Assembly (NCBI GenBank): GCA_049966915.1
Contig: JBMFTS010000002.1
Location: forward strand, 1 to 45,542
Source: Candidatus Micrarchaeia archaeon
Lineage (GTDB): Archaea; Micrarchaeota; Micrarchaeia; Micrarchaeales; CABMGC01
DNA length: 45,542 nucleotides
Reading direction: 5' to 3'
Position 1 is the stretch's first letter; each line of letters opens with the position of its first letter. Positions 6,723 to 28,044 of this stretch are shown here, piece by piece. The notes under the pieces are model-generated. The model did no database searches and had not been told where the DNA came from. It was given only the letters and a program-made list of their open reading frames with translations. Made by a program: the position numbers and the translations under genes.

Positions 6723-7454
6723 ATGTCGAACGTGCTTGCCGACGCCGCAGCAACCTACTCTAGAAACATACGGCTAGTGCTCCTGTTCTCAATTCCTTTT
6801 CTTATTTCTTTCCTAATCCCGGTTGTCGCTCCTTTGCCGGCATATGTGTCAGGCGGGGCCATATTTCTCAGGACATCGGGCTTGTTCGTCAACACCAATC
6901 CCATTTCGCTTGCTATAATAGTGCTCGCTTTATTCTTCTCGCTGCTTTTCTTGAGTTTCGCATTCGTGGCTATAAGCCTGATAGTAAAGGCGGAGAAGAC
7001 GCATACCGCAATAACAAAGTCGGTGCTCCACAACCTCGAAAAGTACACGGGCAAGGTTTTTCTCGTGCTTCTCTTCTACGTGTTCGTGATCATGCTTGCA
7101 GACATCGCCGGCTATTTTGTAAACGCTTCGGGCATCGTCACCGCGGTAGTCGGCTTTTTCGCTTTCATGGCGATTTTTTACGCGCCTACAGCGATAGTAA
7201 TAGACAACAAGCGCATAGGCGTGGCCCTGAAGGACAGCGCCAGGCTCTCTTTCAACAGGCCCCAGTATTTCCTGCTTTGGCTTGTGCTCATAATAGCAAC
7301 AGTGTCGCTGCTCGACTTCCTGCTAATTCATTCGGTCGGCGGCGTTTATTCGGCGTACGCCCTTCTTGTCATCAACTCGCTGTTTGTTGTGCCGTATTTT
7401 GTAATATACCAGGCGCACGCGTACATGCGCAGATTCCAGATTCTTAGGCACTAA
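6723..7454 (+). CDS. Polytopic membrane protein (about 6 TM), first gene of the operon, not a member of the paralog family
   Basis: The ORF track starts it at TTG 6615, inside the rRNA processing stem. ATG 6723 (MSNVLADAAATYSRNIRLVLLF...) is preferred. The protein is very hydrophobic, lacks the R-x5-R-x2-GG motif, and matches no family I recognise. Confidence 0.7.
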   Translation: MSNVLADAAATYSRNIRLVLLFSIPFLISFLIPVVAPLPAYVSGGAIFLRTSGLFVNTNPISLAIIVLALFFSLLFLSFAFVAISLIVKAEKTHTAITKSVLHNLEKYTGKVFLVLLFYVFVIMLADIAGYFVNASGIVTAVVGFFAFMAIFYAPTAIVIDNKRIGVALKDSARLSFNRPQYFLLWLVLIIATVSLLDFLLIHSVGGVYSAYALLVINSLFVVPYFVIYQAHAYMRRFQILRH

Positions 7455-7490
7455 TTTTTATTACCTTATTTCCCTAATCTACTGGGAACC

Positions 7491-8681
7491 ATGCGCGCGC
7501 TTAATATCGGCGTTTTGCTTTTGGCGTTTTTCGCCATGTTCGGGCTTTCAGGCGCAGCCACTACTGCATACGTTTTGCCAAGCTCTTTCATCGCCGCGTC
7601 GCTGCTTGCGCTCACCATATCAATAGACGTAGTCGCTATAGGCTACGTCATTGCAAGGCTTGTGCCAAGCACGGGCATAAGGAGCTGGCTCGACACAGAA
7701 TACTGGGAGCTCGCAAAGAGCGCAATGATAATAATTGGCATATATGCTATCCTGGCATTCATCGGCAGCGTCAGCTTGATTGTTTATAACAGCTATTATC
7801 CAAGCATATCGCATGCCGCAAGCCCTGCATGCGGCTATTCCGCGCAATCCGCAGGCTCATATTCTGCAAGCATAGGCTCGCTAGCATCTGCAGCAGGCTG
7901 CTATCTGAGCAATACGGCAAGCGAAGTGGGCACAGCGATGCAGGACTTTTTCTTTCTTTCAGAGTCGCTGGGCGGCTTAAGAAGCATAACGCTCACAATA
8001 GAGCCTCCGATAGTTCTTCCGGATTTGGTTAATTATCTTCAGTTTGGCTTCTCCACAAAGATTTACGCAAACCAGCTGCTAGAGCAAGGGGTAACTACAG
8101 GCAAGTACGAATCGATGATAAACGACCTGTTTTCCATCATGCTCATACCAATTGCATTGCTCATAGCGGTGCAGCAAGTGGGCTTGGGCTATATAGTTGC
8201 GATAGGCCTGGGCTTTCTCATACCCCTCGGGCTCGTGTTCAGGGCGTTTCCTTTTATAAGGGGCATAGGCGGCACGCTCATAGGCATCGGCGTGGCGCTT
8301 GCGGTGGTATACCCGGCTACGCTTGTGCTGCTCAACATGCCGGTTTCGAACGCGTTCGTGTTTCTGGCGCCGACTACATCTAGTATGACATCCGTAGCGG
8401 CGAGTTCCGGAGTTCCGGTGCTGTTCAATATAGTCGATGCCCTGCTTCCGCCGCCCATAGCTCTCGGCATTCTTGGCGCATCGATCGCTCCTTTATTTGC
8501 ATACGTTGGCGAGATATACACGTTCCTAGACATATACCTTTTCTACGGCACATACTTGCTGCTCCAGTTCCTGCTGTTCATACTCGACCTTGTCATAGTA
8601 TACGCGCTTGGCGATAACATAGCAAGGATGTTAGGCGGCACATTCAGGCTGAGCTTCGGCAACAAGCTCAAGCTCGCGTAG
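7491..8681 (+). CDS. Paralog B of the six-member polytopic membrane protein family
   Basis: Signal-peptide-like N-terminus (MRALNIGVLLLAFFAMFGLSGA) and an extracytoplasmic loop of about 120 aa with two Cys. Motif RAFPFIRGIGG at 8241-8273, followed by TLIGIGVALAVVYP. C-terminal tail ARMLGGTFRLSFGNKLKLA. Confidence 0.8.
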   Translation: MRALNIGVLLLAFFAMFGLSGAATTAYVLPSSFIAASLLALTISIDVVAIGYVIARLVPSTGIRSWLDTEYWELAKSAMIIIGIYAILAFIGSVSLIVYNSYYPSISHAASPACGYSAQSAGSYSASIGSLASAAGCYLSNTASEVGTAMQDFFFLSESLGGLRSITLTIEPPIVLPDLVNYLQFGFSTKIYANQLLEQGVTTGKYESMINDLFSIMLIPIALLIAVQQVGLGYIVAIGLGFLIPLGLVFRAFPFIRGIGGTLIGIGVALAVVYPATLVLLNMPVSNAFVFLAPTTSSMTSVAASSGVPVLFNIVDALLPPPIALGILGASIAPLFAYVGEIYTFLDIYLFYGTYLLLQFLLFILDLVIVYALGDNIARMLGGTFRLSFGNKLKLA

Positions 8682-8689
8682 GTGATGCA

Positions 8690-9868
8690 ATGGCAAACGT
8701 GCTATTGAGCGCTTCCGCGTGCGGTCTTTTGTCACCTAGCGTGAGCATAGGCTACGGCGGCTCGCTTGCTTCTGACTGGCTGCAGATAAACGTGATGCTG
8801 GTGCTGATAATAGTGATGATTTCCAGCCTGCTTTACGCGCTCAGCGCGCTCATGCCTACGCAAAGGCGCGAGAAGCTAAGGGGCGTAGTCCGCTACGAGA
8901 TTTTTGAAGCCATTGTAAGCGTTGTGCTGATATTCATAATAATGGCCATGTCAAGCATGTCGTGTTATATAGGCGCGGGATTGTCGACTTCGGGCACAAG
9001 CAGCGGATATTCTGGCGTTTTCCAGGGGGACGAGCTTTATGTAGGCAATTTGGTGTTTAGCAGGGGTGCTAGCCTTGCCTCGCAGCTTTACACCACTGCC
9101 ATACAATACGCCATAGCTTCGCAGATTGTATCATACGCCGCTTCGCAAATAGACGCGTTTTTTGAAGCCCTTGCCCAAGGAGCGTATGCAATACCTGCAG
9201 TAAACACGAATTCGCTCATAAATATTTATAGCACTTATTCCGGCGTATTTTCGGGATTGTTTGCAGGAATAACCCTTGCAGTATTCAGCGCTTTGTTCAT
9301 TGTGTTCTTGATGTTGCCCGTCGTGCAGGCAATATCGCTTACAGTAATACTTCCTGTGGCGATATTTACAAGGACGCTAGCGTTTACCGGACCCAAGCTC
9401 AGAGAGATTTCCAACACATTCATAGCGCTTGCACTTGGACTTTTCTTCGTGTTCCCGCTAACTATCGCATTCAACGGTTACATCGCCAACTGCATGAATT
9501 TAGGCGTTTCGAATTCGGGCTCCAGCCAGTGCAGCTGGCTCAACACGCAATATCTCACTATTACTCCGCCGCCAATAGCGGTATCATCTTTGTTTACTTC
9601 GACAACTGTATCCGGCGTTAATCTTCCGTTCGATTTCTTTAACGCGATTTCTTCGGCTGGCGCAGCACCAGGCCTGGCAGGCATGTTTTCGCTCATCTTT
9701 GCTGCTCCGACAGTCACACTTAGCTATGCAAATGTGGTGGCAGAGTATGCATTCACCGGGATCGTGCTAATAGCGATAGATTTGCTCATAACCGTCGGTT
9801 TTGTTGCAGGCATAGCAAAAGGGCTTAATGTGATGTCCGGGATAGTCGGAGGAGGTTCGTTCTGGTGA
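8690..9868 (+). CDS. Paralog C (divergent member) of the membrane protein family
   Basis: GGTGAT Shine-Dalgarno-like sequence 4 nt upstream. The aligned motif is FTGPKLREISN (9383-9415), which keeps P4 and R7 but has SN in place of GG. It is followed by TFIALALGLFFVFP with Pro at the same offset. Tail AKGLNVMSGIVGGGSFW. Confidence 0.75.
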   Translation: MANVLLSASACGLLSPSVSIGYGGSLASDWLQINVMLVLIIVMISSLLYALSALMPTQRREKLRGVVRYEIFEAIVSVVLIFIIMAMSSMSCYIGAGLSTSGTSSGYSGVFQGDELYVGNLVFSRGASLASQLYTTAIQYAIASQIVSYAASQIDAFFEALAQGAYAIPAVNTNSLINIYSTYSGVFSGLFAGITLAVFSALFIVFLMLPVVQAISLTVILPVAIFTRTLAFTGPKLREISNTFIALALGLFFVFPLTIAFNGYIANCMNLGVSNSGSSQCSWLNTQYLTITPPPIAVSSLFTSTTVSGVNLPFDFFNAISSAGAAPGLAGMFSLIFAAPTVTLSYANVVAEYAFTGIVLIAIDLLITVGFVAGIAKGLNVMSGIVGGGSFW

Positions 9869-9876
9869 TATGATGA

Positions 9877-11634
9877 ATGCACATGTTTCAAAAGCGGCCT
9901 TTGCGGCTGGTGGTTGTCGTGTTAAAGGTTAGGATTGCGGCTTTAGCTGTTTTGGCAATGCTTGTGCCTTACTCTATGGCGCAGGGCATAGAAATAGCGC
10001 CGCAATCAGCGTTTGGCAATTGGCTTCCAGTCATGTTCGCAGCGGTGCTGCTCAGCATAGTCATAACCTCTGTATACTATGTATTCGGGTACCTGCTAAA
10101 TGACAAGAGGGTAAAAGAAAGGGCAATCACCGAATTTGCACAGGCCATAGGTACTGGAATACTTGTGGTAGTGATAATAGCAGTGTTGGAGCTTGTGGGC
10201 TCTACATTGTTGTCTCCGATATCAGTGCTGTCTGCAGGCAGCGTAAACGGCATTTGCAACAGCCTGGTTAATTCAAAAGTTACATTTCTCAACTCTGCCA
10301 ATTCCGCCTCACCGGTCAATGCCATATGCAACGACATAATATTGCCGTTGGCGTCGGGTTCAAGCAAGCAGTCGCTTACTGACAAGATAGATTACGGGGT
10401 GGCAGCCACTTATGTGGTAATAGCCAATGTCACTAATCAGGCTGCAAACAATCTTGACGCGTTTTATGTATACGACGGCATGATAAGCTTTCTCCGCGAG
10501 CTCACTTCAGTTAACGGCTTCGGCAGCTTCGGCGTGTGGAGCGTAACTTTTCAATATGCTCCTTTGGCAGGCTACAACTTTCTTAGGAAAATGAGCCTCG
10601 CTGTCGGCATAGTAAGCGCGCTAGTCATCGACTCCTTTGCCGCACAGCTCCTGGTAATATTGTTGGTGCTTGTCACGTGGCCGTACGTGCTAGCCGCAGG
10701 CGTAATTTTCAGGGCCACGCCATACACGCGAAGGCTGGGCGGCCTTCTTATAGGAATTGTGCTGGCGTTGCTCGTTATTTGGCCCGTGCTATTTCTGTTT
10801 GAATACGCCTCACTGGGCACTACGCAGTCTTCCTTCCCCATAGGTTCAAACACAATACCGTACACTCCTGTCTATGAACTTATGCCAAACGGCAACGTAA
10901 TGGTTTACGGCGCCTCTTCCGGTTATGAGCAAGTCACTACGCAGAGTATCGCAGGCTGCCCACCAGGCGACTATGTTTACGAAGGAATTTGCGGAGAAGC
11001 CAGTACTGTCGGCTCGCCGCCCGACTGCAAGCTGCCAAGCCAAATTTCGCAATTCCAGATGTGCCAAAACGGCTTCGCTCCAGATAACGCGCTGTGCCAC
11101 AGCGGATCCTATGTATATGAGGGTGTTTGCGGCGATCCGAATACATCTGCCCGTACTGCGCGATGCTTCAACCAAAACCAGGCGGCACAGAGCGGTCTTC
11201 CAATGTGCCCAAGCAGCCCTATTTTGCACGACACCGGAATTGCGCTGTTCCAATTGCCTAACGCTACGGAAACCGTAAAATATTATTCGTGTTGGCCGCC
11301 TTCCGGCAACCTGCCGCAAGCTGAAGCCGAGGCCGCCGCGTTTTACCTAATACCTTTCTTTGGCCTTGGAGCGGCGGCTTATCAAACAATCGCGTCCATC
11401 GTGAGTTCGACGTCGAGCGTATCTAGCATACCGTACTACCCTCCAATCATAACCTGCAGCCCTCAAAACGCTCTCGACACAGGCTTGGCGTTTACCAATA
11501 TCTATGGCATAACAAGCATATCTGCATTCATATTGCCCCTGCTCAACGTGCTAATAATTTACGGCGCCGCAACGAGCTTGTCAAAGCTGCTCGGCGGCGA
11601 AAGCGACATACTGGGCCTTAGCAAACTGATATAG
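9877..11634 (+). CDS. Paralog D, carrying a tandemly duplicated 4-Cys module in an outside loop
   Basis: Motif RATPYTRRLGG at 10711-10743, then LLIGIVLALLVIWP. Tail SKLLGGESDILGLSKLI. A Cys-rich insertion at 10957-11292 is unique to this paralog. Signal peptide ends in SMA-QG. Met3 (9883) is an alternative start. Confidence 0.8.
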   Translation: MHMFQKRPLRLVVVVLKVRIAALAVLAMLVPYSMAQGIEIAPQSAFGNWLPVMFAAVLLSIVITSVYYVFGYLLNDKRVKERAITEFAQAIGTGILVVVIIAVLELVGSTLLSPISVLSAGSVNGICNSLVNSKVTFLNSANSASPVNAICNDIILPLASGSSKQSLTDKIDYGVAATYVVIANVTNQAANNLDAFYVYDGMISFLRELTSVNGFGSFGVWSVTFQYAPLAGYNFLRKMSLAVGIVSALVIDSFAAQLLVILLVLVTWPYVLAAGVIFRATPYTRRLGGLLIGIVLALLVIWPVLFLFEYASLGTTQSSFPIGSNTIPYTPVYELMPNGNVMVYGASSGYEQVTTQSIAGCPPGDYVYEGICGEASTVGSPPDCKLPSQISQFQMCQNGFAPDNALCHSGSYVYEGVCGDPNTSARTARCFNQNQAAQSGLPMCPSSPILHDTGIALFQLPNATETVKYYSCWPPSGNLPQAEAEAAAFYLIPFFGLGAAAYQTIASIVSSTSSVSSIPYYPPIITCSPQNALDTGLAFTNIYGITSISAFILPLLNVLIIYGAATSLSKLLGGESDILGLSKLI

Positions 11635-11641
11635 TGGTGAC

Positions 11642-12832
11642 ATGCGAGCGAGCCGTGCTTTGATGTTTTTTGTCATGTCGTTGCTGCTTTTGTCACTTTC
11701 AAAAGCAGGCATAGGCATACCTACAATATATTCGCCTGTTTCAGCCCAAGCTGCACCTACACTTGCCAATAGCTTTGACAACGCGCTTATGCCCGTATGC
11801 TCCAGCATGATTGCCCCGCTTTCTGGTTTAGGCGGCAGCTATTCTGCGCTGCTGAGCATTTCACTGGCCATAGTGTTTATGGTGCTGACAATACTGGGCG
11901 TAGTGTATGCAATAGGCAGGGCTTTCGGCATACCGGTGCTCATGGAGTTCGTCAAAAAAGAATACTTGGAAAGCATTTTCAACATAGTGCTCATAGTTAT
12001 TGCCGCAGGCGGCTTGGGGTTTGCCGACGCGTCGGTGTCATTTCTTAGCAATCTCGCACTCAGCTCATCGGCAACAGGCCAAGCAAGCGTCAGCAGCATA
12101 AGCAGCGCCAACAGCCTGTATCTTACCCTGTGCAATACATATCTTAGGAATGGCATAACTTACGGCCTAGTCGACATAGTTGTTTTGGTAGGCCCAAACA
12201 TTATAGACTCATCAATGTTGCAAAATCTTAGGGTGAGCATAGGAAACACTAGCGAAGACAATCCGCTGGGCGTTTCTGTGTCGTTTTCGCCTTTCGCTGG
12301 CATATATCCATATGTGCAAGTGCTTTCCGCAGAAAACAATGCAGTTTATGCAATGATTGCGGTATATTTGGGCATAAGTTTCTTGCTTGCAATAATATAT
12401 GGCATATTTCCGCTGCTGTTCTATGCCGGCATACTCCTGAGGTCTTTTCCATGGACGCGCGCTGCCGGAGGCGCGCTGCTTGCGCTTTTCATCTCCTTCT
12501 TCATAGTTTTTCCTAGCATACTTTTCGCATTTGCTAATGCGCCGTCAAGTTACGGCGAGTCATCAGCAAGCATATATACTGGAATTGCTGGCTTTTTTGG
12601 AACAATTGCTAGCTTTTTTGGACCAGCAGTAAGCGGCATACTTGCCGGTATAGGTGCAACATCAATAATTTCGGAAATGGAATCATTTGTCAGCGTATTC
12701 GCCTATGGCGCTTTGCAGTTGCTAGGCTTGATTGTCGCCCTGCTTGTGTCGTTCGATCTTCTGGAGAGCCTTGGCGATCTGCTCGGCGCGCCGTCGCTTC
12801 AGAGCAGGAGCCTGCTTAAAAACGTGATATGA
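11642..12832 (+). CDS. Paralog E of the membrane protein family
   Basis: GGTGA precedes the ATG. Motif RSFPWTRAAGG at 12440-12472, then ALLALFISFFIVFP. Tail GDLLGAPSLQSRSLLKNVI. N-terminus looks like a signal peptide. Confidence 0.8.
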   Translation: MRASRALMFFVMSLLLLSLSKAGIGIPTIYSPVSAQAAPTLANSFDNALMPVCSSMIAPLSGLGGSYSALLSISLAIVFMVLTILGVVYAIGRAFGIPVLMEFVKKEYLESIFNIVLIVIAAGGLGFADASVSFLSNLALSSSATGQASVSSISSANSLYLTLCNTYLRNGITYGLVDIVVLVGPNIIDSSMLQNLRVSIGNTSEDNPLGVSVSFSPFAGIYPYVQVLSAENNAVYAMIAVYLGISFLLAIIYGIFPLLFYAGILLRSFPWTRAAGGALLALFISFFIVFPSILFAFANAPSSYGESSASIYTGIAGFFGTIASFFGPAVSGILAGIGATSIISEMESFVSVFAYGALQLLGLIVALLVSFDLLESLGDLLGAPSLQSRSLLKNVI

Positions 12833-13797
12833 TGCTGCCCGTTGCCACAATGATGTTAAGCATTTACAGCGTAATGACGTCGCCGGTCTACGCATGGTTC
12901 CCTGTCGCTATAGCCGGCGCAATTGCCATTATCGCAGTATTGGCGCTGGTATACGAGCTTAGTCCATTTTTCGGAAGAACAGACCTGCGCGCGTGGGCCA
13001 AAATAAAGATGTACGAGGTATTTTTCTCGATAGTTCTCATATTCGTGTTTTTCGCTTTCATGGCCGTATTTTCCAGCATAAACTTCGGGAGCACATTGGG
13101 CCAGCTCGCTCCTAAGGATTGTGCGAGCAACTTCGACATCTATGCTCTTTCGATGTGCGACCTTAACCATTTCCAAAGCTACGTGGCGCAGTTCAACAAT
13201 CTGGTGTTCGTGGCCATGTTTTCTACTGTTCCAAGTACCGAAATAGGGGTAAAATTGCCTGATTTTTCAGCTTCAACTAGCATTTCTGGCGCGGATGCCG
13301 CATTCGGGTTCTCATTTGTGGAATTGAGCATACTTTTCGCGTTTTACATGCTTAGCGACGTTCTTCTTTTGCTGCTATCGGTCTCACTTCTGCTTTTTGC
13401 AGTGTTCATGGCGATTGGTCTTATTTCCAGGATTTTCGAGGTAACAAGGACTTTTGGCGGGGCAATGATCGCCTTCGGAATAGGCTTGGGTATGCTATTT
13501 CCGTTGCTTATCGCTTTGTCGTACGGCTTTGTCGACGTTGCCGTTTCCAAAGCAGCTAGCCTAGTTACCATTTCTGGTTTGGAGAGTGCCTTGCTAGGTA
13601 TCATTTTCGCTCCGCTTGGCGCGGCCCTTGCTATCGATGCGTTAGTAAACTTTTTTGTATTTGCCGGTTATATTATAGCAGGCATAGTGTTCCTGCCAAT
13701 TTTTACGCTTACAATAGTGGACGTCTTTATACGTGACTTTTCAAGGGCGGTCGGCGAGCAGATGAATTTTATGAGCATATTGACAAACATGATATGA
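12829..13797 (+). CDS. Paralog F of the membrane protein family
   Basis: ATGA start/stop overlap with paralog E. Motif RIFEVTRTFGG at 13429-13461, then AMIAFGIGLGMLFP. Tail SRAVGEQMNFMSILTNMI. C-x11-C pair (CASNFDIYALSMC) in the first outside loop. Confidence 0.8.
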   Translation: MMLPVATMMLSIYSVMTSPVYAWFPVAIAGAIAIIAVLALVYELSPFFGRTDLRAWAKIKMYEVFFSIVLIFVFFAFMAVFSSINFGSTLGQLAPKDCASNFDIYALSMCDLNHFQSYVAQFNNLVFVAMFSTVPSTEIGVKLPDFSASTSISGADAAFGFSFVELSILFAFYMLSDVLLLLLSVSLLLFAVFMAIGLISRIFEVTRTFGGAMIAFGIGLGMLFPLLIALSYGFVDVAVSKAASLVTISGLESALLGIIFAPLGAALAIDALVNFFVFAGYIIAGIVFLPIFTLTIVDVFIRDFSRAVGEQMNFMSILTNMI

Positions 13798-13815: not shown

Positions 13816-14910
13816 TTGCCTACTCTAGTTTATGCAATCGTGTTTATTTCGCTGTTATTCGGCATTTCATTAGCCAGAATCATCACAGCCCCGCCGCCAC
13901 CGCCTCGTGTCGTTGGTTCTACAGTGTCATCGTGCCCGCAGATTGCGCAGGCAGTCGCTCCATGGTATTGCAACCAGATAAATCAGGCTGCGGCAGCGAT
14001 ATGGGCCAAGTGGGAACCGATAGCTGCGGTAGCGGCATTTGCATCTTTTGTCCTTGCAGTCATAATATTCACAATAGGCATAGCAATAAGGAACAACAAG
14101 GTCAAGGAATTCGGAATAGGTGAAATGTACGAGGCGGTTGCCACTATTATCATGGTGGTGATGTTTCTGTTCATCTCCGCTACAATGTTTGGAATACTGC
14201 CTGCAATTACGACCGGAAATATAGATCCATATACTGTTGCGCTTACATACATAAGCAAAAACATAAACGAGACGCTATACCTGCAAAGAATAATGTTTAA
14301 TTCTTATATGATAGGCAGTTATTATGCATCCATATCCCTGATCGTAAGTATTGGCGATTCGTCAATACCGATTTCAATGCTGTGGAACTTGCCGGTAACT
14401 GTTTATTATTTGCTCCCGGTAGACGCAATTTCTTCAATTGTTCTGGAAGCATTGCTTCTGCTTTATACAGAATTCTACATGATACTTTTCTTCATGTATG
14501 CCAGCATACCTGTGTTTCTTATACCGGGCATAGTGCTTAGGGCGCTGTTCCCGACGCGCAGCGTTGGCGGGATGATGATTGCCATAGCAATCGGCTTTTA
14601 CTTTATCATGCCAATTCTGTTTGCCGTTGCGTTCTACTTTACTAGTTCGAGTGCGCTGGCTTCTGTATACTCCGGTGCGCAAGCAATAGCGGCTAACGGC
14701 CAGGGCAGCTCGAGCATAACAAACGCCATAAGCCCGACAAGCCCGCTTGTTCTAGCGATCAAGAACATACAAAGTGGAATGGGGGCCTATTGGATGAGCA
14801 TACTGTTTTATCCTGCGCTTATAATAGCCATAGTATACGAAAGCATAATGGTCATCGGAGAATTTATAGGCGGATTTGCGAAATCATCTGGATTGCTCAG
14901 GGCGATATAG
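13816..14910 (+). CDS. Paralog G of the membrane protein family
   Basis: TTG start with GAGG 17 nt upstream. Motif RALFPTRSVGG at 14539-14571, then MMIAIAIGFYFIMP. Tail GEFIGGFAKSSGLLRAI. An APPPPPR stretch and a C-x11-C pair (CPQIAQAVAPWYC) follow the N-terminal helix. Confidence 0.75.
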   Translation: MPTLVYAIVFISLLFGISLARIITAPPPPPRVVGSTVSSCPQIAQAVAPWYCNQINQAAAAIWAKWEPIAAVAAFASFVLAVIIFTIGIAIRNNKVKEFGIGEMYEAVATIIMVVMFLFISATMFGILPAITTGNIDPYTVALTYISKNINETLYLQRIMFNSYMIGSYYASISLIVSIGDSSIPISMLWNLPVTVYYLLPVDAISSIVLEALLLLYTEFYMILFFMYASIPVFLIPGIVLRALFPTRSVGGMMIAIAIGFYFIMPILFAVAFYFTSSSALASVYSGAQAIAANGQGSSSITNAISPTSPLVLAIKNIQSGMGAYWMSILFYPALIIAIVYESIMVIGEFIGGFAKSSGLLRAI

Positions 14911-15808: not shown

Positions 15809-15809
15809 C

Positions 15810-21409: not shown

Positions 21410-21410
21410 A

Positions 21411-21566
21411 CTACAAACTACCCGCTTCCCCTTTTTTGGCCACTAGCCTGTTGACTAAATTTTCAAACGCCTTGGAAAGTTTGTTCTCGCTTCCGCCAAT
21501 GCGCTTGACAATCCTGTAAACCTTTATGTAGCTGTATTTTTTGTTTATTGTAACCGCGTATATCAT
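21411..21566 (-). CDS. Candidate 51-aa basic protein (below the ORF-track size cut-off)
   Basis: Manual translation: MIYAVTINKKYSYIKVYRIVKRIGGSENKLSKAFENLVNRLVAKKGEAGSL. Its TAG stop is 1 nt from the ATG of the 779-aa gene (TAGTATG). It fills an otherwise empty 169-nt gap. Confidence 0.4.
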   Translation of the reverse strand: MIYAVTINKKYSYIKVYRIVKRIGGSENKLSKAFENLVNRLVAKKGEAGSL

Positions 21567-21578
21567 TCAACCGCCTGA

Positions 21579-22310
21579 CTATCCTTTTAGTTCCAGGTAG
21601 CCTAGGCTTACCATCTTGTCAAGTATCTGCTCCACCCTGGGCTCGGGTATCTTGTACGTTTTTGAAAATTCTCCTATGTCTATCGTGCTGTCGTGCACTT
21701 CAAGCCAATCCTGCACCATCGCCATTAGCGCTTCGTCCGAATATGTTTGCAGGGCGTTGAGCTGTTCCTGCAGTTTCTTGTTTTCCTCGCTCAGTTGCGA
21801 AGCCTGTATGGTCAGGTTGTGGTTCGATACTGTGAGCTCGCTCGCAAGTTTTCTCAGTTCGGCGTATTCCGCCAATAACGCGTCGTACTTGTTGAAAAGC
21901 GAACTGTAGTTTTCGTTGAGCCCGTCGAGCAATTCCGTTATTGACGAATCCACATATTGGAAGAACTTCTGCTGGTCCACCCTGAAATCGTCGGCTATCA
22001 CGGCAAGCATTCCTGCCACATTTTTGATTACAGTAGCACGGCGCATCCTCTCGCTAGTATTCGGCACTATCGAATAGGTGAGAAATACGCCGTCTTTTCT
22101 CAGCTTGACAATGTAAAACAGAAAAGGCTCCTTCCTAACATTCCTGCTTTCTACGTGCACTACATCTAGTTCGTCTGCGCTCTGGGTTATGGAATAGAAC
22201 GGGATCTGTGCGAGTTTTGCGCGTATAGCGTCAAAGCTGCTTACCACTGACCCCGGAAATTGCACCTCTTCGACTTTCGGTTCAGGTATTTCTTCTTCGG
22301 CCACTCTCAA
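21579..22310 (-). CDS. Cytoplasmic coiled-coil protein with a C-terminal winged-helix-like domain
   Basis: TTG start preceded by GGAGG. The central heptad-rich segment is NKYDALLAEYAELRKLASELTVSNHNLTIQASQLSEENKKLQEQLNALQ. C-terminus is IGEFSKTYKIPEPRVEQILDKMVSLGYLE. Confidence 0.65.
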   Translation of the reverse strand: MRVAEEEIPEPKVEEVQFPGSVVSSFDAIRAKLAQIPFYSITQSADELDVVHVESRNVRKEPFLFYIVKLRKDGVFLTYSIVPNTSERMRRATVIKNVAGMLAVIADDFRVDQQKFFQYVDSSITELLDGLNENYSSLFNKYDALLAEYAELRKLASELTVSNHNLTIQASQLSEENKKLQEQLNALQTYSDEALMAMVQDWLEVHDSTIDIGEFSKTYKIPEPRVEQILDKMVSLGYLELKG

Positions 22311-22504
22311 GCATCCTCCGGACGTGCATTCGCAGCAATGCGAGCACGTAGTTTATGACATTAGGGGCTTACGCACTTATAAATCTTTTTGCGTATCTGC
22401 AGCGTTAAAGACGGCAAGTCTGTTTATTGCAATAAAGTCGTTTCCGTGCGTGTGCGCCGAAGTGCTTGCATGCAAGCGCGTTGCACTGTCGCGGCTGCGC
22501 GCAA

Positions 22505-22897
22505 TCAGCGTTTGCCAGTGTGCCTACTTTGCGCCGTTGCCGCGTTTTCCTGTTTGGGCATCTTAAGCTTGGGCGTGTAACTGAGCAACGAAAACGCGTA
22601 AAGCAGCGCAGTTACGAGTATGCCTACTCCGAGCGCGTAAAGCTTGTCCGATGCCACGAACAGCGAGAACAGCGTGAAAATAATACCCAGTGCAAGGTAG
22701 AGTTTTTCCCTGCCTTCATATTTTTTGCGCATAATTGCGTATTTCGGGTAGCACTCTTTGCAAACGACCAATCTGTTTCCTTGTTCGTTCTTTGTAACGT
22801 TCCTTTTGAACCATCTTATTGTGTTTATGACCCAGTCCTGCTCTACTTCTATACCCTGCTTTTCCTCGCCGCAGACTATGCAAATGCTCTTTGCCAT
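22505..22897 (-). CDS. Zn-ribbon protein with a C-terminal 2-TM hairpin
   Basis: CIVCGEEK...VCKECYPKY (CxxC...CxxC), followed by LYLALGIIFTLFSLFVA and ALGVGILVTALLYAFSLL. The ATG shares one nucleotide with the upstream TAA (TAATG). Confidence 0.65.
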   Translation of the reverse strand: MAKSICIVCGEEKQGIEVEQDWVINTIRWFKRNVTKNEQGNRLVVCKECYPKYAIMRKKYEGREKLYLALGIIFTLFSLFVASDKLYALGVGILVTALLYAFSLLSYTPKLKMPKQENAATAQSRHTGKR

Positions 22898-23196
22898 TAT
22901 GATCCCAGCTCAAGCTCTACGAGCTTTCCGTATTCTTTCTTTATCTTTTCTTCGTCGAGCATGTTCATGACGTTGGTTATTGTCACGTCGTCTATTCCCA
23001 AGCGTCTTAGCACGTTCACTACTTGCTCGGTCTTCAGCCCGGATTTTTCTAGAAGCCCGGCAAATGACACTGCGTTTACGTGCCTGTGCTGCTTGTTGAG
23101 CTCGCCGAGCAGTTCCTGCACTGTTTTTTCGCTCACTCCTATGAGCGTAAGCATGCGCTGGAGCTTCTGTCGCGACACAGTGAATGTGGCTCCCAT
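22897..23196 (-). CDS. Small soluble protein, a paralog of the C-terminal tail of the adjacent ATPase
   Basis: Start taken at Met14 (MGATFTVSRQ...), which removes the overlap with the ATPase gene. The segments MLTLIGVSEKTVQELLGELNKQH and LLEKSGLKTEQVVNVLRRLGIDDVTITNV align with ATPase residues about 435-498. Confidence 0.6.
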   Translation of the reverse strand: MGATFTVSRQKLQRMLTLIGVSEKTVQELLGELNKQHRHVNAVSFAGLLEKSGLKTEQVVNVLRRLGIDDVTITNVMNMLDEEKIKKEYGKLVELELGS

Positions 23197-23218
23197 ATTG
23201 TTTACCTTGTTTGCATTG

Positions 23219-24724
23219 TCAAGTAACGTACACAAATGCCCTTGTTATTACCGAATCGGGCAGGCCTATCGCCCTGAGAAAGCCGACTATTGCTTCCTTG
23301 CTTACCTGCTTGCCCAAAAGCAGCTGCACGAGGCTTCTTACGTCGGCAAGCCTGCCTTTTGCGTCCAGCTGTTTGAAAACGTCCTCTATGATTTCAGACC
23401 CGACGTTGTTTTCTATCAGCTTTGCGCTTATGTCCGCCTTTTCAAGGAAGTATTCCTTTTGCACGGTTTCGTCGGCGAGCTCGCTCTGGCTCAGTATGTC
23501 TGCAACGTTTATTGTATATACGTCTAGCGGCACCTCTCCAACAACCCTGTCGAGCAGAAATATTTCTGGAAACTCCACATTGGTTTGAAATGACATGTCG
23601 ACTGCCGCCTGGCCCACTCCGAACTTGCTTATTTCGCGCCTCATAAACTCGGAAAAATTGAGCGAGCCCTGCAGATAATCGAGGAAGCGCTCGAATCTTA
23701 TTCTTAAGATTATGTTAGTGCCAACGTTTGAAAATATTGCTTCGTTTATGTCAGTGGGGTTTTGCGATGCCACGATAAGGCCAAACTGGTATTTGCGGCC
23801 TTCCCTTATTATCGTCACCGCGTCGCTTCGCTCGTCGCTTGCTATCTTCCATGCTTCGTCGAGCACGACAAGCGCCTTGAGTCCTTTGGTGGCAGACCAG
23901 CCCTCCATTCGCATTTTTTCTTTAAGCGTTTGCAATATGAACAATGCAGCAAGCGCCCTAAAGCGCTCGTCAGGCAGGCCGGAAAGGTCTATGTCCACGA
24001 GGCCTGAGCTAGAGAGCTTGCCAAGGTCTATTGTGCTCTTTCTTGCGAAATAGTCCTCGCCCTCCCTTGCAAACTGCCTGAGCCTGTATACCGCGTTTTC
24101 TAGTTCGGCCGGATACTCGTAAGTGCCTCCCTGCAGCTGCTCCTCAAGAAGCGATATCACCTCCTTGAGCGTTGGCGCCTCTTTGCCCACTTGCGGCGTT
24201 TCTGCCAGGTTGAAGCCCGCATTCACGTATGCCTGCTCTAAAGCCTCTTCGGTAAGCCTCTTCTGTTCTGGATAGTCGCTTATGTCGGTAAGTATCTCCA
24301 GAGAAGTAAGTATCTGCTTGGCGCGGTCGAGCGGTTTCATGCCAGAAAGGTCCATTATGTTGAGATAGTCCCCTTTGCCCAGAGAGACTATCGTGCCGCC
24401 GCTCTGCTTTACCCACGCTTTGTATTCGCCGGCCCAGTCTATTATTATTGCGTTGGTATTCCAGATGAAGCTGGCCCTCGCGAGGAAAGTCTTGACGAAG
24501 AAGCTCTTGCCTGCGCCGGTTATGCCAACTACTGCTATGTGCGGATTTGTAAGGTTTGAAAAGGTCCATGTGAAAGGCACGCTGAAAAGCTTTGTTATGC
24601 CTATGAATATGGAATTGGTCGGATCGTTAAGCAAATAGTCCGCAGGCGGCTCTGGAGGCCTGCTCAATATAGTCCTTTTGCCGAGCTCGTTGCTCATTAT
24701 GTTTTGCAAGCGTAAAAGGCCCAT
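23219..24724 (-). CDS. VirB4/HerA-like (FtsK-HerA superfamily, DUF87-type) P-loop ATPase
   Basis: Walker A GITGAGKS (24503-24526). Walker B VVLDEAWK (23855-23869 covers VVLDE). Also REGRKYQFGLIVASQNPTDI, typical of HerA/VirB4/TraC-like translocases. At 501 aa, with the P-loop at residue about 70, it lacks a long VirB4-type N-domain. Confidence 0.8.
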   Translation of the reverse strand: MGLLRLQNIMSNELGKRTILSRPPEPPADYLLNDPTNSIFIGITKLFSVPFTWTFSNLTNPHIAVVGITGAGKSFFVKTFLARASFIWNTNAIIIDWAGEYKAWVKQSGGTIVSLGKGDYLNIMDLSGMKPLDRAKQILTSLEILTDISDYPEQKRLTEEALEQAYVNAGFNLAETPQVGKEAPTLKEVISLLEEQLQGGTYEYPAELENAVYRLRQFAREGEDYFARKSTIDLGKLSSSGLVDIDLSGLPDERFRALAALFILQTLKEKMRMEGWSATKGLKALVVLDEAWKIASDERSDAVTIIREGRKYQFGLIVASQNPTDINEAIFSNVGTNIILRIRFERFLDYLQGSLNFSEFMRREISKFGVGQAAVDMSFQTNVEFPEIFLLDRVVGEVPLDVYTINVADILSQSELADETVQKEYFLEKADISAKLIENNVGSEIIEDVFKQLDAKGRLADVRSLVQLLLGKQVSKEAIVGFLRAIGLPDSVITRAFVYVT

Positions 24725-24767
24725 GCTAATACATTTTTCACTAATTTATTTAATAGTGCTGTTGGCG

Positions 24768-25592
24768 CTATTTCTGCACTGAAAATTCAAGCTCGAGCTC
24801 CTGCTCGCCTGGCAGCGCGTAATTGAACTGAAACAGCGAGTAAAGCTCCCTGCCAACGACGCGAGTTATGCTGAGGTCGAACCCGCCGAATACCGTTTGC
24901 AAGTGGTCGAGCTGCGAAGACAGGCTGTCAAGTGCCTCCTTTTCGCTCACGCCCACGGCCGTGCTTTCTATGTACATTAGCGCATTTATCGGCCTTTCGC
25001 CGCTGGAGAGCCTATCTATTCGAGTTTGTATTATGTTTATTCGCCTCTGCAAGTCCTCTATTGTGAGTTGGCTTGGCGTAGTTGAACTCATTTCCCTTGA
25101 CAGCTGGAATTCAAGCGCGCCCCTTCTCGCTTCAAGCTCGTCCCTGTACTTTTGCAGGTCTTCGGCAAAGCAGACAATGTCATACTTGAAAGGAAACGTT
25201 ATGTTTTGCACTATGCGCTCCCAGTTGTTGGGGCCCTCTGCAAGCAGCGTTTCTTCGCCTTCCTGTATCTGCTCTACAGTGAACACGTAGTTGTATATGT
25301 TGGCAGTGAGGTAGCCTGTGGCATAGTACACGCCGTTTACGTATTTTATTATTGCGTTGTTGGCCTTTGGTATGTAGTAGTCTTTTGCGGGTATTTGCTT
25401 TATGTTTAAAATTGTGGTAAAAAGCGGGAACAGCAGAAAATCAGCGTAATTTATTATGAAAAATGCCAGTATGGCAAGTATTGCAAGGACTGCCACGATT
25501 ATGGCCGCTGAGCCGTACGCTGCCGACGCCATTGCAACAAGTATCGCTATTATCGAGCATGTTGCTAAATAAAATATGGTATTGGCGTCCAT
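24768..25592 (-). CDS. 2-TM membrane protein with a ~200-aa soluble domain (paralog of 25593-26435)
   Basis: Two N-terminal helices, then a soluble domain with a coiled-coil-like stretch (YRDELEARRGALEFQLSRE). By eye it aligns with the upstream gene: NYADFLLFPLF vs YYAYLFAPLL, NNAIIKYVNGVYYATGY vs GNAIVTKRGSEFYVSAF, and VGVSEKEAL vs SGASEEEAT. Confidence 0.7.
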   Translation of the reverse strand: MDANTIFYLATCSIIAILVAMASAAYGSAAIIVAVLAILAILAFFIINYADFLLFPLFTTILNIKQIPAKDYYIPKANNAIIKYVNGVYYATGYLTANIYNYVFTVEQIQEGEETLLAEGPNNWERIVQNITFPFKYDIVCFAEDLQKYRDELEARRGALEFQLSREMSSTTPSQLTIEDLQRRINIIQTRIDRLSSGERPINALMYIESTAVGVSEKEALDSLSSQLDHLQTVFGGFDLSITRVVGRELYSLFQFNYALPGEQELELEFSVQK

Positions 25593-26435
25593 TTACACAC
25601 CCAAAGACGCTACTTTTTCCTGCATTTGCTCGCTTATAGTCGCAAACGGTATCATCTCGTCAGGCTCCAGCGCGCTAAGAAATTCCTTTGATTCCATTAT
25701 GTACGCGCTTACGCCCAGCGTGGCACTGACTCCGGCAGCAAGTTCATCGGCTTTTTGCATGGCTATTGTCGTGGCTTCCTCTTCAGAAGCCCCGCTTGCA
25801 GTAACCATGGCAAGCGTGCTCATTGCATTGGATCTTACCCTGCTTACAGAGTCGAGCAGGTTTCTCCACATAGTCACTTCGCCCTTGGCTCTCTCAAGAT
25901 CAGGGTTTGCCTGCGCCGGATTTGCCTGGTTATTCAGAGTAGCATAGCGCGCTTCGGCGTCATTGAGCTTGTTGCGTATCTCGCTTATGTACTCGTCCTT
26001 GTTTATTACATAGAGCATGGTCGTGAATTTTACGGGCTCTTTGCTCACCGTAAGGACTTTTGAAAATGCCCTGGCGAATTCCACGCGTTCGTCCTCGGTC
26101 ATTTCGGTAGCGGACTTATAGATTGGTATTTTTACAAACGCGCTTACATAAAACTCGCTGCCGCGCTTTGTTACTATGGCATTGCCGTTTGGGGAAATTC
26201 TAAATGCAGAATCTTCGCTAAGCACAAGCGTTTTGTTTTTTGCATGCAGCAGCGGCGCAAACAGATACGCGTAGTATTTTGTCGAAAATGCCACGACGTC
26301 AAACAGCAGTGCAAGCACGGCAAACACTGCTCTTACATATGCCGGCAAAGTCAAAAAGTATACTAGCAGCACAAAGGTGAAAGATACGAGCACAAGCGCG
26401 AAAAAGATGCTCCTGCTTGAGAGTGTCATTTGCAC
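25593..26435 (-). CDS. 2-TM membrane protein with a ~200-aa soluble domain (paralog of 24768-25592)
   Basis: GTG start at 26435, or ATG at 26429. Its stop TAA directly abuts the ATG of the next gene. Same architecture as the downstream paralog. Confidence 0.7.
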   Translation of the reverse strand: MQMTLSSRSIFFALVLVSFTFVLLVYFLTLPAYVRAVFAVLALLFDVVAFSTKYYAYLFAPLLHAKNKTLVLSEDSAFRISPNGNAIVTKRGSEFYVSAFVKIPIYKSATEMTEDERVEFARAFSKVLTVSKEPVKFTTMLYVINKDEYISEIRNKLNDAEARYATLNNQANPAQANPDLERAKGEVTMWRNLLDSVSRVRSNAMSTLAMVTASGASEEEATTIAMQKADELAAGVSATLGVSAYIMESKEFLSALEPDEMIPFATISEQMQEKVASLGV

Positions 26436-26458
26436 GACCTAGCGAAAATATGTTTAGT

Positions 26459-26470
26459 ATATTTATAAAG
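26459..26470 (-). promoter_or_regulatory. TATA-like box (ctttataaatat on the minus strand) upstream of 25593-26435
   Basis: A strong TTTATAAATA element about 30 nt upstream of the start codon, within a 72-nt intergenic gap. This suggests a leaderless internal transcription start. Confidence 0.45.
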
Positions 26471-26507
26471 ATATTCGCTTGGCGCAATCAGTCGGCCGCA
26501 TTGCTGG

Positions 26508-27530
26508 TCATGGTGGGGCTACGTATGCGCCGCAGTAGTTGCTTATGCCGCTCTGGAAGGCATATGTGCTGTTGAGTTCAGCATACGTGGCATATTTGAG
26601 TATGCCTTCGTATGTTACTTCGACTATGGGCGTCACCGCATTTGCGGACATGTTGAGCAGCAGGGAAAGCATAGGCTCTTGCGCAATTCCGCTGCGAAAC
26701 ACTGGCGTGTAATTGACAAATACAAGATCGCCAATTTTCATTGCTGCTTTGGCAGTGACGTTTATCGGCGTTTCTTTGCTTACATTCGCAAAAGAAACGG
26801 CTCCCGAAGGCACGGCGTTGTAATAGCGCTGGTATGTGGCATTGTAAATGGTTTCATTGCACACTGCATCTTTTTCGTAAAGCGCCTTGTAATCGTTCAT
26901 CAGAATGCCTTCTGCTGTTTTTGTGTTAGCGTACGCGAGAGCCTGGCCAAGCAGCACGCTTGTCTGGTTTATTGTTGATGTGGTTGAAGAGGTCGTGGTT
27001 GTTGTTGAAATGGCTATTATCTTGAGCCCGCTGGGCGCACTTATGCTCGCGGGGCCTATCAGTTTTATGCCTGCACTGGGCCTTATGCCAAGCACCAGCG
27101 AGAGCGGTGTAAGAAGGAGTTTGGCATGCGATGCGTTGCTGCTTACGAGTCGTATGTTCAGGTCGGCGTTGCCGCTAGCGCTTGTGCTTACGTTAGCGCT
27201 TGCGCCGCGCATCAGCGTAACCTTCGAAGCATACCCCACCAAAAGCGGAAGTTGAGAAACATATACGGTTGCGCCGGTGCTGTTTGACGACGCTACGAAA
27301 ATTGCAAATGTGCTGCTGTTCTGCATTTTCAGGAGTTCAGCGCTTGGCGTTTTTAGCAAAATGCTCTTTGCAGAGCCCAGGAAGGTCTGGCTTTCGTGCG
27401 GCAATGCCGCAAGTGCTATTGCCGCGATTATTATTGCTATTATGGCAACGAACGTAAAAAACCTTTTAGGGTTTGCAATTCTGCTGCGCTTTTTTGCCTG
27501 CGTTATTTTGTCGCTTTTTATTGTCGCCAT
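26508..27530 (-). CDS. N-terminally anchored surface glycoprotein with a Thr/Ser-rich linker
   Basis: Start taken at Met42 (MATIKSDKITQAKKRSRIANPKRFFTFVAIIAIIIAAIALAAL); the longer ORF would overlap the pilin-like gene. Contains a STTTTTSSTTSTINQTS linker and about 12 N-x-S/T sequons. Confidence 0.7.
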   Translation of the reverse strand: MATIKSDKITQAKKRSRIANPKRFFTFVAIIAIIIAAIALAALPHESQTFLGSAKSILLKTPSAELLKMQNSSTFAIFVASSNSTGATVYVSQLPLLVGYASKVTLMRGASANVSTSASGNADLNIRLVSSNASHAKLLLTPLSLVLGIRPSAGIKLIGPASISAPSGLKIIAISTTTTTSSTTSTINQTSVLLGQALAYANTKTAEGILMNDYKALYEKDAVCNETIYNATYQRYYNAVPSGAVSFANVSKETPINVTAKAAMKIGDLVFVNYTPVFRSGIAQEPMLSLLLNMSANAVTPIVEVTYEGILKYATYAELNSTYAFQSGISNYCGAYVAPP

Positions 27531-27582
27531 GTTGTTTACTATGCAAGAAAGAAATAAGAAACTTGCGCAAAGCGCAATCAGG

Positions 27583-28044
27583 CTACGAAACCTCCGACAG
27601 ATATACGCATTGCACGGCATAGTCGGTCGGGCAGTGCGCCATTGCCGTGACATTTACCATGTACACGCCTTCTGAAGATATGCCACTCAGCTGGCCGCTT
27701 ACATTAACTGGCGAATACGCAGTTATGTCGCTCAACCCCGTTGGCGACGAAACCACGAATACTATCTCATGGCCAACAAGGTTTGTTACCGGAGTTCCGA
27801 CATAGATAAACCTTACGTTTGCAGGCACTACTATTTGCACAAGCTGTTTTGCCGGCGCTCCTTCGCTGCCCACGAGCGAAGCCACACTGGCGAGCTTGCT
27901 CGCAGCCTGCTGCGCGCTTATTGCCGACATGGATGTGTTTGTGCTTGCAAGCTGCACGAACGCTATCACCACTATGGGCAAGAGTATTGCTAGGCCGAAC
28001 GACAGCGTTATCAGCAACTCAAAGCTCGATTGTGCTTTATGCAT
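27583..28044 (-). CDS. Type IV pilin-like protein with an archaeal class III signal peptide (DUF361-like)
   Basis: MHKA/QSSFELLITLSFGLAILLPIVVIAFV has the basic residue, small residue, Gln+1 and Glu+5, then a hydrophobic helix. That is the classic prepilin-peptidase substrate pattern. Three N-glycosylation sequons and a C-terminal C-x7-C pair (CPTDYAVQC). Confidence 0.75.
   Translation of the reverse strand: MHKAQSSFELLITLSFGLAILLPIVVIAFVQLASTNTSMSAISAQQAASKLASVASLVGSEGAPAKQLVQIVVPANVRFIYVGTPVTNLVGHEIVFVVSSPTGLSDITAYSPVNVSGQLSGISSEGVYMVNVTAMAHCPTDYAVQCVYLSEVS

Follow-up and report, generated by a model that had tools for sequence, protein, structure and literature searches.

The described systems closest to the locus reported here are two DNA import machines of Thermoproteota, Ced of the Sulfolobales and Ted of the Thermoproteales. 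Both are domesticated, chromosomal derivatives of type IV secretion systems (T4SSs) that have no relaxase and no outer-membrane complex, and in both the ATPase is VirB4/HerA-like (CedB/CedD/TedB), the polytopic protein resembles VirB6 (CedA/TedA), and the pilin resembles VirB2 (CedA1/TedC) (PMC9905601, PMC11868833). We analyzed a 45.5-kb contig from a metagenome-assembled genome (MAG) of Candidatus Micrarchaeia (this whole stretch of DNA is hereafter called the window) and found a gene cluster that shares these general traits. Our reading, to which we assign a probability of roughly 65%, is that the cluster encodes a T4SS-derived, Ced/Ted-like membrane translocation and pilus machine that sits on the chromosome and is fixed across the phylum Micrarchaeota. 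An initial annotation of the same DNA had proposed Ced/Ted-like logic with an expanded parts list around a VirB4-type ATPase in a small-genome DPANN host, and on each of these points our analysis bears it out.

The cluster is kept in content and order across related genomes. Scanning one genome per GTDB species with an alignment of the ATPase gave 403 relatives, and our locus comparisons use the best 80 of these, which are 68–88% identical to the window protein. They are labeled Micrarchaeota except for a few probably mis-binned MAGs; among them are a Mancarchaeum MAG and Ca. Micrarchaeum sp. A_DKE, which is in culture (its copy is locus L055). The canonical order is a VirB2-like pilin gene, a gene for a ∼640-aa polytopic protein, gene A, six paralogs (B–G), two genes for paralogous proteins with two transmembrane (TM) segments (m280 and m274), the ATPase, a free-standing copy of its tail (m112), a Zn-ribbon protein (m130), a coiled-coil protein (m243), a 51-aa protein, and a large glycoprotein (m779). 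From gene A onward, 75 of 81 loci, drawn from about 80 species-representative genomes, carry a co-directional cluster colinear with this order, and 25 loci contain all 14 genes; such conservation is far beyond chance. On a 658-kb contig (L001), gene A, B–G, m280, m274, the ATPase, the tail copy, the Zn-ribbon, coiled-coil, and 51-aa proteins, and a 781-aa ortholog of m779 form one co-directional row. The window carries every canonical gene but the pilin and ∼640-aa genes, and here the row is broken: the A–G block lies on the plus strand and the remaining genes lie on the minus strand. The initial annotation treated these blocks as two modules. Both are real and they do belong together, but they are not separate units: G is directly followed by m280 in 49 related loci (median gap 58 nt), and the two blocks derive from a single ancestral operon. 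A rearrangement in the window and its close relatives (L002–L004 and L010) split this operon by moving and inverting the A–G block. All genes listed in that annotation were recovered where it had placed them, with one omission, the conserved 51-aa open reading frame (ORF) at 21411–21566 on the minus strand.

Two further loci, L170 and L171, are interrupted differently. Their cluster ends after the ATPase (about 16.7 kb) and a glutamine synthetase gene comes next, so the half from tail copy to glycoprotein must be located somewhere else. The cluster has thus been split in a second way, independently of the first. A few cluster-type genes, namely the ATPases of L054, L006, L057, L076, and P0155 (72–79% identical to that of the window) and the paralog-E homologs P0050 and P0062, are labeled Methanothrix sp., Marsarchaeota, Saccharimonadales bacterium, or Aquilonibacter, probably through binning or labeling errors.

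Each of B–G has its own one-to-one ortholog at a fixed position across loci, so the six-fold duplication is older than the radiation of these ∼80 species, none of the six copies having been given up since. Median identity to the window protein is 72% for the ATPase, 55% for A and for m243, 52% for m274, 47% for m112, 46% for m130, 43% for m280, 42% for G, 36% for m779, and 31–35% for B–F; the motor is thus unusually constrained. The divergence of ATPase and partners looks vertical, and the flanks of the cluster differ between loci yet are housekeeping genes (23S rRNA, AlaRS, CarS, Topo VI B). With ∼15–18 genes, the cluster occupies roughly 1.5% of a ∼1-Mb genome, and its order is maintained in at least 80 species. 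It appears to be chromosomal, vertically inherited, and not mobile. Its ATPase does come from a family typical of conjugative plasmids: at least 5000 plasmid records match it, 4619 of them conjugative, and the matches listed are mostly annotated traC, aligning at ∼24% identity over about three quarters of the length (residues 19–441). Some of the minimal relatives described below also lie beside Fic, DNA methylase, or second P-loop ATPase genes. A still-mobile integrated conjugative element or plasmid-derived transfer module is nevertheless a very improbable explanation, because identical order and one-to-one orthology hold in ∼80 species, inheritance looks vertical, the varying flanks are housekeeping genes, and neither relaxase, type IV coupling protein, nor integrase occurs in the scanned window genes or in the Pfam tables of L001, L083–L087, and L170–L172. 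We also rejected a viral origin: the ATPase had five weak matches in phage collections, and none of its viral relatives exceeded 32% identity.

The motor ATPase (501 aa; 23219–24724, minus strand) matches the Pfam DUF87, AAA_10, and TraG P-loop domains, the latter two above their cut-offs, and has Walker A at G67–S74, Walker B at D289–E290, and a helical tail of ∼80 aa thereafter. VirB4, TraC, and CD1110 models are collinear with residues 39–381. In a Foldseek search, the AlphaFold2 model [predicted local distance difference test (pLDDT) of 87] matched the C-terminal domain of Thermoanaerobacter VirB4 (4ag5/4ag6) with TM-scores of 0.79–0.80 and a root-mean-square deviation of 3.3–3.5 Å; the TM-score was 0.75 against the DndH C-terminal domain and 0.44–0.54 against HerA structures. 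Sequence and fold agree with the VirB4/DUF87 assignment made initially. The ATPase is not an ortholog of the Ced motors, for NCBIfam CedD and CedB score 72.8 and 60.4 bits (cut-offs 600 and 700), and the NCBIfam VirB4 and HerA models likewise score far under their cut-offs. Only ∼55 residues stand ahead of the P-loop, so the protein has neither the VirB4 N-terminal domain nor the HerA barrel. This bears on the idea of a canonical HerA-type end-resection helicase that has unrelated membrane genes nearby by chance. HerA and the motor share the FtsK/HerA/VirB4 P-loop superfamily, the Pfam DUF87 ("HerA central domain") match, and PDB sequence matches to HerA chains. However, HerA models cover only the Walker-B half (residues 231–393), Walker A begins at residue 67 and leaves no HAS-barrel, and we found no NurA, Mre11, or Rad50 in the scanned window genes or in the fetched loci with gene and Pfam tables. 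A_DKE, moreover, encodes a separate 569-aa HerA (arCOG00285), and the motor is always linked to its membrane partners, unlike in HerA–NurA. We regard the chance of a HerA-type helicase as close to nil.

The tail of the motor recurs as a free-standing protein. As initially proposed, m112 (22897–23235, minus strand) is a copy of ATPase residues 420–499 (hhalign probability 97.1%, E = 5e-11); its likely start is the ATG at 23196, which gives 99 aa, and it was found in 79 loci. Tail and copy look like a tandem helix-loop-helix, with weak MCM_C winged-helix matches in 10 of 41 members and calmodulin-like matches in the PDB. On these weak winged-helix/helix-turn-helix (HTH)-like matches, the tail is at most a candidate DNA-binding domain.

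The N-terminal part that the motor lacks seems to be supplied by its two neighbors, m280 (280 aa; 25593–26435) and m274 (274 aa; 24768–25592), both on the minus strand. The initial annotation called them paralogous 2-TM proteins, and hhalign agrees (96.9%). Neither has a family in Pfam, NCBIfam, or PHROG scans, nor does m274 have a PDB family; m274 is the partner that co-occurs most widely with the ATPase outside Micrarchaeota. Among 2239 relatives found by an ATPase-profile search of 1.84 billion representative proteins, some are 813–913 aa long with the ATPase domain at about residues 270–630. These long relatives align with NCBIfam CedB from position 13–99 to position 587 of 590 (E = 1e-26 to 7e-42), TM and N-terminal part included. 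The m280 hidden Markov model (HMM) matches their first ∼250 residues (P0278, E = 2e-6; P0308, E = 3.5e-6), covering residues 4–247 of the 888-aa P0278. Against an alignment of seven long-relative N-termini, the m280 family reached an hhalign probability of 96.7% (E = 3e-10), and m274, aligned in that register too, gave 39%. The CedB and CedD proteins of Sulfolobales both possess a TM segment plus an N-terminal domain, and these N-terminal domains are reported to superpose on the one of VirB4, each on a different part of it (PMC11868833). From the m280 match and this superposition, m280 and m274 are best read as the membrane anchor and N-terminal domain of a CedB/VirB4-type motor that have been split off and duplicated. 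The motor is a VirB4-type ATPase, and its membrane-anchored N-terminal domain appears to have been turned into two paralogous genes.

Some long relatives carry additional C-terminal modules, a winged-helix and nuclease-like extension by eye in P0278 and an Lrs14/Sta1-type HTH domain in P0373 (NCBIfam E = 2.8e-6). The cytoplasmic tail of m779 is unrelated to the C-terminal extension of the long CedB-like proteins.

An FtsK-like housekeeping DNA pump for segregation or division, anchored by the 2-TM proteins and with a tail acting like the FtsK gamma domain, would account for several of these features: the extreme conservation of the ATPase, the housekeeping neighbors, the helical tail and its duplication, and a coiled-coil partner with weak ZapB-like matches. 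Nevertheless, we consider it quite unlikely. The fold of the ATPase is nearest to VirB4, its Pfam FtsK_SpoIIIE match (E = 0.0077) extends over 24 residues only, and its N-terminal domain is CedB-like; a division pump, moreover, has no need of a pilin, six polytopic paralogs, and a surface glycoprotein.

The plus-strand block comprises seven tightly packed genes for polytopic proteins, as initially described, with intergenic gaps of 36, 8, 8, 7, −4, and 18 nt from A to G. Gene A (243 aa; 6723–7454) directly precedes the paralogs in the canonical cluster; next come B (396 aa; 7491–8681), C (392 aa; 8690–9868), D (585 aa, with a Cys-rich extracellular insert of 12 Cys; 9877–11634), E (396 aa; 11642–12832), F (322 aa, its start overlapping the stop of E by 4 nt; 12829–13797), and G (364 aa; 13816–14910). 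The proposal that most of these genes have GGTGA-type ribosome-binding sites held in part, such sites being clear only upstream of C, D, and E. The six-paralog array was confirmed: within-window blastp connects B–G at E = 1e-6 to 0.013, and with ortholog alignments from the 80 related loci, all 15 pairs reach hhalign probabilities of 96.7–99.5% (B, 98.5–99.5%; C, 96.7–98.5%; D, 96.7–99.4%; F, 97.3–98.8%; G, 97.5–99.5% against the other paralogs). Gene A stands outside the family, with no hhalign relation to B–G, although its orthologs occupy the same position in the 25 fully covered loci. None of A–G has a family in Pfam, NCBIfam, or PHROG scans, and B–G match no transporter family.

We consider B–G candidates for the VirB6/CedA class. 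The family motif R..(P)..TR..GG...P is present in B. Paralog E has no Pfam domain and 105 homologs, all named Micrarchaeota but for two oddly labeled ones. Its AlphaFold2 model is all-helical (pLDDT 82.6, predicted TM-score 0.75), and TrwI/VirB6 chains of the R388 T4SS take ranks 1, 2, 13, 14, 22, and 26 among its Foldseek matches in the PDB, where no match reaches E ≤ 0.001. From hydrophobic segments, helices of the E model, and invariant columns, we infer a topology in which conserved Cys53 and Cys164 would lie outside the cell and the invariant R..PW.R.AGG turn, the E107/E110 loop, and the C-terminal LG..PS tail would lie in the cytoplasm.

The pilin of this system is a VirB2-like protein that the window does not contain. 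Together with the ∼640-aa polytopic protein, for which Pfam, NCBIfam, and PHROG scans gave no family, it heads the cluster in all four canonical loci with upstream DNA (L001 and L170–L172). The canonical pilins are 121–140 aa long, have a signal peptide and two TM helices, and are matched by the family HMM at E = 2e-31 to 2e-21. Aligned with R388 TrwL (VirB2), the family profile reached 89.8% (E = 1.8e-6), while the controls (reversed or shuffled TrwL, VirB3, QacE-delta1, m130, A, and the class III pilin) remained below 1%. For three members, the top Pfam families were T4SS_pilin (PF18895) and TrbC/VirB2 (PF04956), both sub-threshold. The pilin is also related to the channel candidates: the N-terminal TM hairpin of paralog C (residues 37–83) matches the pilin family with an hhalign probability of 84% (E = 7.6e-6), the pilin HMM finds six C orthologs (E = 1e-5 to 1e-3), and the C HMM in turn finds the pilins (E = 3e-6 to 4e-6). 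Similarity between a pilin and the N-terminal part of a channel protein has likewise been reported for CedA1/CedA and VirB2/VirB6 (PMC9905601). Between the pilin/∼640-aa pair and gene A, L001 (3311–4870) and L172 (3187–4743) carry a DUF2079 membrane protein gene, in opposite orientations; it is not at that position in L170 or L171.

A search of representative proteins and a metagenome scan revealed minimal relatives of the cluster on other archaeal contigs. Six minimal metagenome loci (L087, L091, and L094–L097) encode, in this order, a small protein, one member of the B–G family, one m274/m280-like protein, the ATPase (365–465 aa, with the same tail), and coiled-coil proteins. The small proteins (121–154 aa) have a signal peptide and two hydrophobic helices. 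A second tier (L103 and L109–L128) has m274, the ATPase, Zn-ribbon and coiled-coil proteins, and an ∼850-aa homolog of m779. The small proteins of minimal, second-tier, and canonical loci form one family. The one-copy loci show ancestral versions of the cluster, in a series that leads from one copy to a machine with six-plus-two paralogs. Fic (L094) and DNA methylase (L091) genes lie near minimal clusters; with the second P-loop ATPase, this neighborhood hints at a mobile-element origin.

Other observations concern individual relatives. In L112 (5074–6816) and L123 (5603–6895), four and three tandem pilin paralogs, respectively, stand directly upstream of the m274–ATPase core. There is no adjacent B–G-type gene, so in this lineage multiplication seems to have affected the pilin and not the channel protein. 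We rejected the polytopic neighbors in L112 as members of the B–G family; they are unrelated, and one looks by eye like a spermidine-synthase-type fusion. A second large protein (724–755 aa) follows the minimal clusters of L094 (11146–13410), L095 (8735–11002), and L096 (4909–7083), with weak P-loop matches to DUF87/AAA in L096 and to Zot in L094; it might be an analogue of the coupling protein.

Downstream of the motor, the cluster continues with soluble or short membrane proteins and ends with the large glycoprotein; apart from the 51-aa protein, all of these are present as first annotated. The 130-aa Zn-ribbon protein m130 (22505–22897, minus strand) shows two CxxC pairs as well as two hydrophobic segments, and its place behind m112 is conserved in 78 loci. 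No gene accompanies the ATPase more faithfully than that for m243 (243 aa; 21579–22310, minus strand), a coiled-coil protein with a C-terminal winged-helix-like domain that recurrently gives sub-threshold matches to EAP30 (E = 4.7e-5), PCI, TrmB, MCM_C, and RPA_C; in the distant loci L083–L085, where the other genes are absent, m243 still comes after the ATPase. The basic 51-aa protein has homologs in 68 loci, lies between the m243 and m779 orthologs in L001 and in the window, and may, judged by eye, be ribbon-helix-helix-like. The bitopic glycoprotein m779 (779 aa; 19070–21409, minus strand) has an N-terminal anchor, an ectodomain of ∼500 aa that bears 26 N-glycosylation sequons, and, beyond another TM segment, a cytoplasmic tail of ∼215 aa. 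It ends the cluster in 71 loci and has no family in Pfam, NCBIfam, or PHROG scans, tail included. We rejected m779 as an S-layer protein; that of A_DKE is a different, 101-kDa protein (PF05123).

A pilin at the head of the cluster and a heavily glycosylated surface protein at its end could also mean that the machine only assembles a pilus or adhesion filament, a VirB2-like filament or m779 display that attaches to a host without translocating anything. The tandem arrays of three to four pilins in related loci fit this, as does the finding that neither a coupling protein nor a relaxase occurs among the scanned genes. Filament assembly alone would hardly need five cytoplasmic or cytoplasm-facing helical, Zn-ribbon, and winged-helix modules conserved with the motor, however, and the homologous Ced system imports DNA (PMC9905601, PMC11868833). 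We therefore hold this explanation to be unlikely.

Several results weigh against a Ced/Ted-like translocation machine. We found no match in the window to the VirB2-like gene or to the ∼640-aa gene; both must be elsewhere in that genome or lost. The relation to the pilin is strong only for C; it drops to ∼40% for the E family and the single-copy relatives and to ≤3% for the other paralogs. The best TrwI/VirB6 fold match of E is weak (E = 0.047, probability 0.97, TM-scores 0.29/0.37). In sequence, A–G and the single-copy relatives scored below 1% in hhalign against a TrwI/VirB6 alignment, a comparison of low power given that this alignment is narrow (34 sequences, ≥50% identity); a Pfam scan of the paralogs gave no TrbL/PF04610 signal; and the E family found nothing meaningful among PDB sequence profiles. 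The HTH and winged-helix assignments are all sub-threshold. Moreover, an ATPase identity of 68–88% across a phylum is atypical for conjugation ATPases and would also fit a core cell-cycle function. The evidence that B–G are VirB6-like is indirect and weak.

If the cluster is a translocation and pilus machine, its parts could work together as follows. A hexamer of the ATPase would dock on the membrane through m280 and m274, and the six nonredundant VirB6/CedA-class paralogs, perhaps as a hetero-oligomer, would form the membrane channel or pilus-assembly platform; docking would take place at their conserved cytoplasmic loops, the R..TR..GG turn and the LG..G.PS tail at the C-terminus. The pilin would be extracted from the membrane and polymerized, glycosylated m779 would reach the surface layer or the host, and the small cytoplasmic helical, Zn-ribbon, and winged-helix proteins would handle the substrate; as predicted from sequence, these modules are compatible with nucleic-acid handling. 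The likeliest substrate would be DNA, imported as in Ced, with protein or other cargo also possible. DNA import would fit host dependence.

A more specific arrangement can be put forward as a doubtful but tangible possibility. B–G might form a hetero-hexameric ring matched one-to-one to the m280/m274-tethered hexameric motor and, with m779 and a VirB2-like tube, serve as the symbiont-side portal of a bridge to the host, importing host DNA, nucleotides, and other macromolecules. In the related archaeon ARM-1, cryo-electron tomography has revealed that the envelope of the symbiont contains a 21-nm barrel, as yet unidentified, to which nanotubes of the host are docked (PMC11329633), and by analogy this barrel is one candidate counterpart of such a portal. 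If such a portal exists, the machine would be essential for the DPANN lifestyle and would represent a previously unseen T4SS architecture. The ARM-1 barrel and the Patescibacteria T4SS discussed below are leads rather than evidence for this locus.

The remaining genes of the window are neighbors. An archaeal 23S rRNA gene at 3790–6622 stands alone: neither 16S nor 5S genes occur anywhere in these 45 kb, which means that the rRNA genes are not linked. Gene A starts with the ATG at 6723; a longer, TTG-initiated ORF from 6615 would extend it wrongly, into the 3′ end of the rRNA. The nuclease gene behind G (14912–15808, plus strand) is Exo5/Cas4-like, as initially named (Pfam Exo5, E = 1.8e-41), and is not a NurA. 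It adjoins cluster genes only in the window, L002–L004, and L010, where it marks the rearrangement junction, and it overlaps the AlaRS gene (15801–18482) by 8 nt. Two minus-strand genes upstream of m280 encode a Thr-rich glycoprotein (26508–27653) and a class III signal-peptide pilin-like protein (27583–28044), the latter with no family in Pfam, NCBIfam, or PHROG scans. Both exist as annotated, but phmmer found them in three loci and one locus, respectively, and type IV-pilin-like genes occur near the cluster only sporadically. Since these three proteins lie beside the cluster only in the window's lineage, we do not count them as parts of the machine, as the initial annotation had done. A CBS protein (28037–29161) has a weak C-terminal match to S30AE/HPF (ribosome hibernation; E = 1.6e-4), just under the Pfam cut-off. 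The window also encodes two tRNAs, DUF2070, undecaprenyl-diphosphate synthase, AlaRS, CDP-archaeol synthase, RNase H, pyruvate phosphate dikinase, a thioredoxin-reductase-like protein, and a histidine kinase. Integrase, transposase, relaxase, and coupling protein genes were not found among the scanned window genes. VirD4 and relaxase also had no Pfam or NCBIfam match in cluster genes or scanned neighbors and do not appear in the gene tables of L001 and L170–L172, and the cluster and scanned window genes hold no domains of a PilB/FlaI-type ATPase or PilC/FlaJ platform. The absences noted initially thus held among the scanned genes.

We found no published description of the cluster in the papers and preprints searched; neither the A_DKE culture paper nor a study of 163 Micrarchaeota genomes mentions it. 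As a whole it is apparently undescribed. It is not categorically new, since homology to T4SS/Ced components can be detected in three core parts (the pilin, the motor, and the N-terminal domain split off from it), and the initial view that it has no named counterpart was too strong. Its new features are the phylum-wide fixed order, the ancient six-fold paralogs, the split and duplicated N-terminal domain of the motor, and several family-less partners. To our knowledge, no dedicated host-exchange machinery has been identified in Micrarchaeota. The cluster is a strong candidate for a route by which DNA or other material is exchanged with hosts, and it bears on the question of how hosts come to supply DPANN archaea with DNA precursors, lipids, and other material. 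Experiments are feasible in two cultured systems, A_DKE and ARM-1, the first of which carries the cluster.

A coupling protein (VirD4) and a relaxase define conjugative systems. Compared with bacterial conjugative T4SSs, the Micrarchaeota cluster is not on a plasmid, and VirB1, VirB5, VirB7–VirB11, VirD4, and relaxase were not found. VirB3 and VirB8 had no Pfam match among the cluster proteins, a result that includes no dedicated profile–profile or fold test of m130 or A. What the cluster has in common with such systems, for example R388 Trw (TrwL/VirB2, TrwI/VirB6, TrwK/VirB4), is the fold of the ATPase C-terminal domain and the pilin profile; TrwI is also the best, though weak, fold match of paralog E. 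A polytopic T4SS component has also been multiplied in other host-associated organisms, in the rvh system of Rickettsiales (PMC7648143) and in Bartonella Trw, with several TrwI paralogs per genome. Those paralogs are genuine members of PF04610 and belong to complete bacterial T4SSs, whereas B–G have no PF04610 signal and split six ways before the radiation of a whole archaeal phylum. Within DPANN, the SPEARE-type giants of nanohaloarchaea are likewise surface-associated, have VirB4-like ATPases, and are proposed to act on hosts (PMC10266531). Their VirB4/TraG-like domain forms part of a single giant surface protein with Ig repeats, there is no paralog array, and a relation to the Micrarchaeota cluster is shown only at the level of the ATPase superfamily.

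A parallel in lifestyle is the chromosomal T4SS of Patescibacteria, which is essential for epibiotic growth (PMC12102498). Here, too, a reduced T4SS with VirB2-like pilins occurs in a tiny symbiont genome, and its TrsD is a separate homolog of the VirB4 N-terminus (PMC12102498). It differs in being a bacterial MPF-FATA system with recognizable VirB3/PrgI and VirB6 profiles, in which a six-fold array was not reported (PMC12102498). The Micrarchaeota machine would thus be an archaeal parallel to a T4SS on which epibionts of the candidate phyla radiation depend for growth. With respect to Ced and Ted, several differences stand out: the TM and N-terminal domain are encoded by two paralogous genes and not fused to the ATPase, there are six polytopic paralogs and not one or two, at least six further conserved genes (A, m112, m130, m243, the 51-aa gene, and m779) accompany the core, and the host belongs to DPANN and not to Thermoproteota. 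The cluster would extend the domestication of T4SS modules by archaeal chromosomes, known from Ced and Ted, to a third major archaeal lineage.

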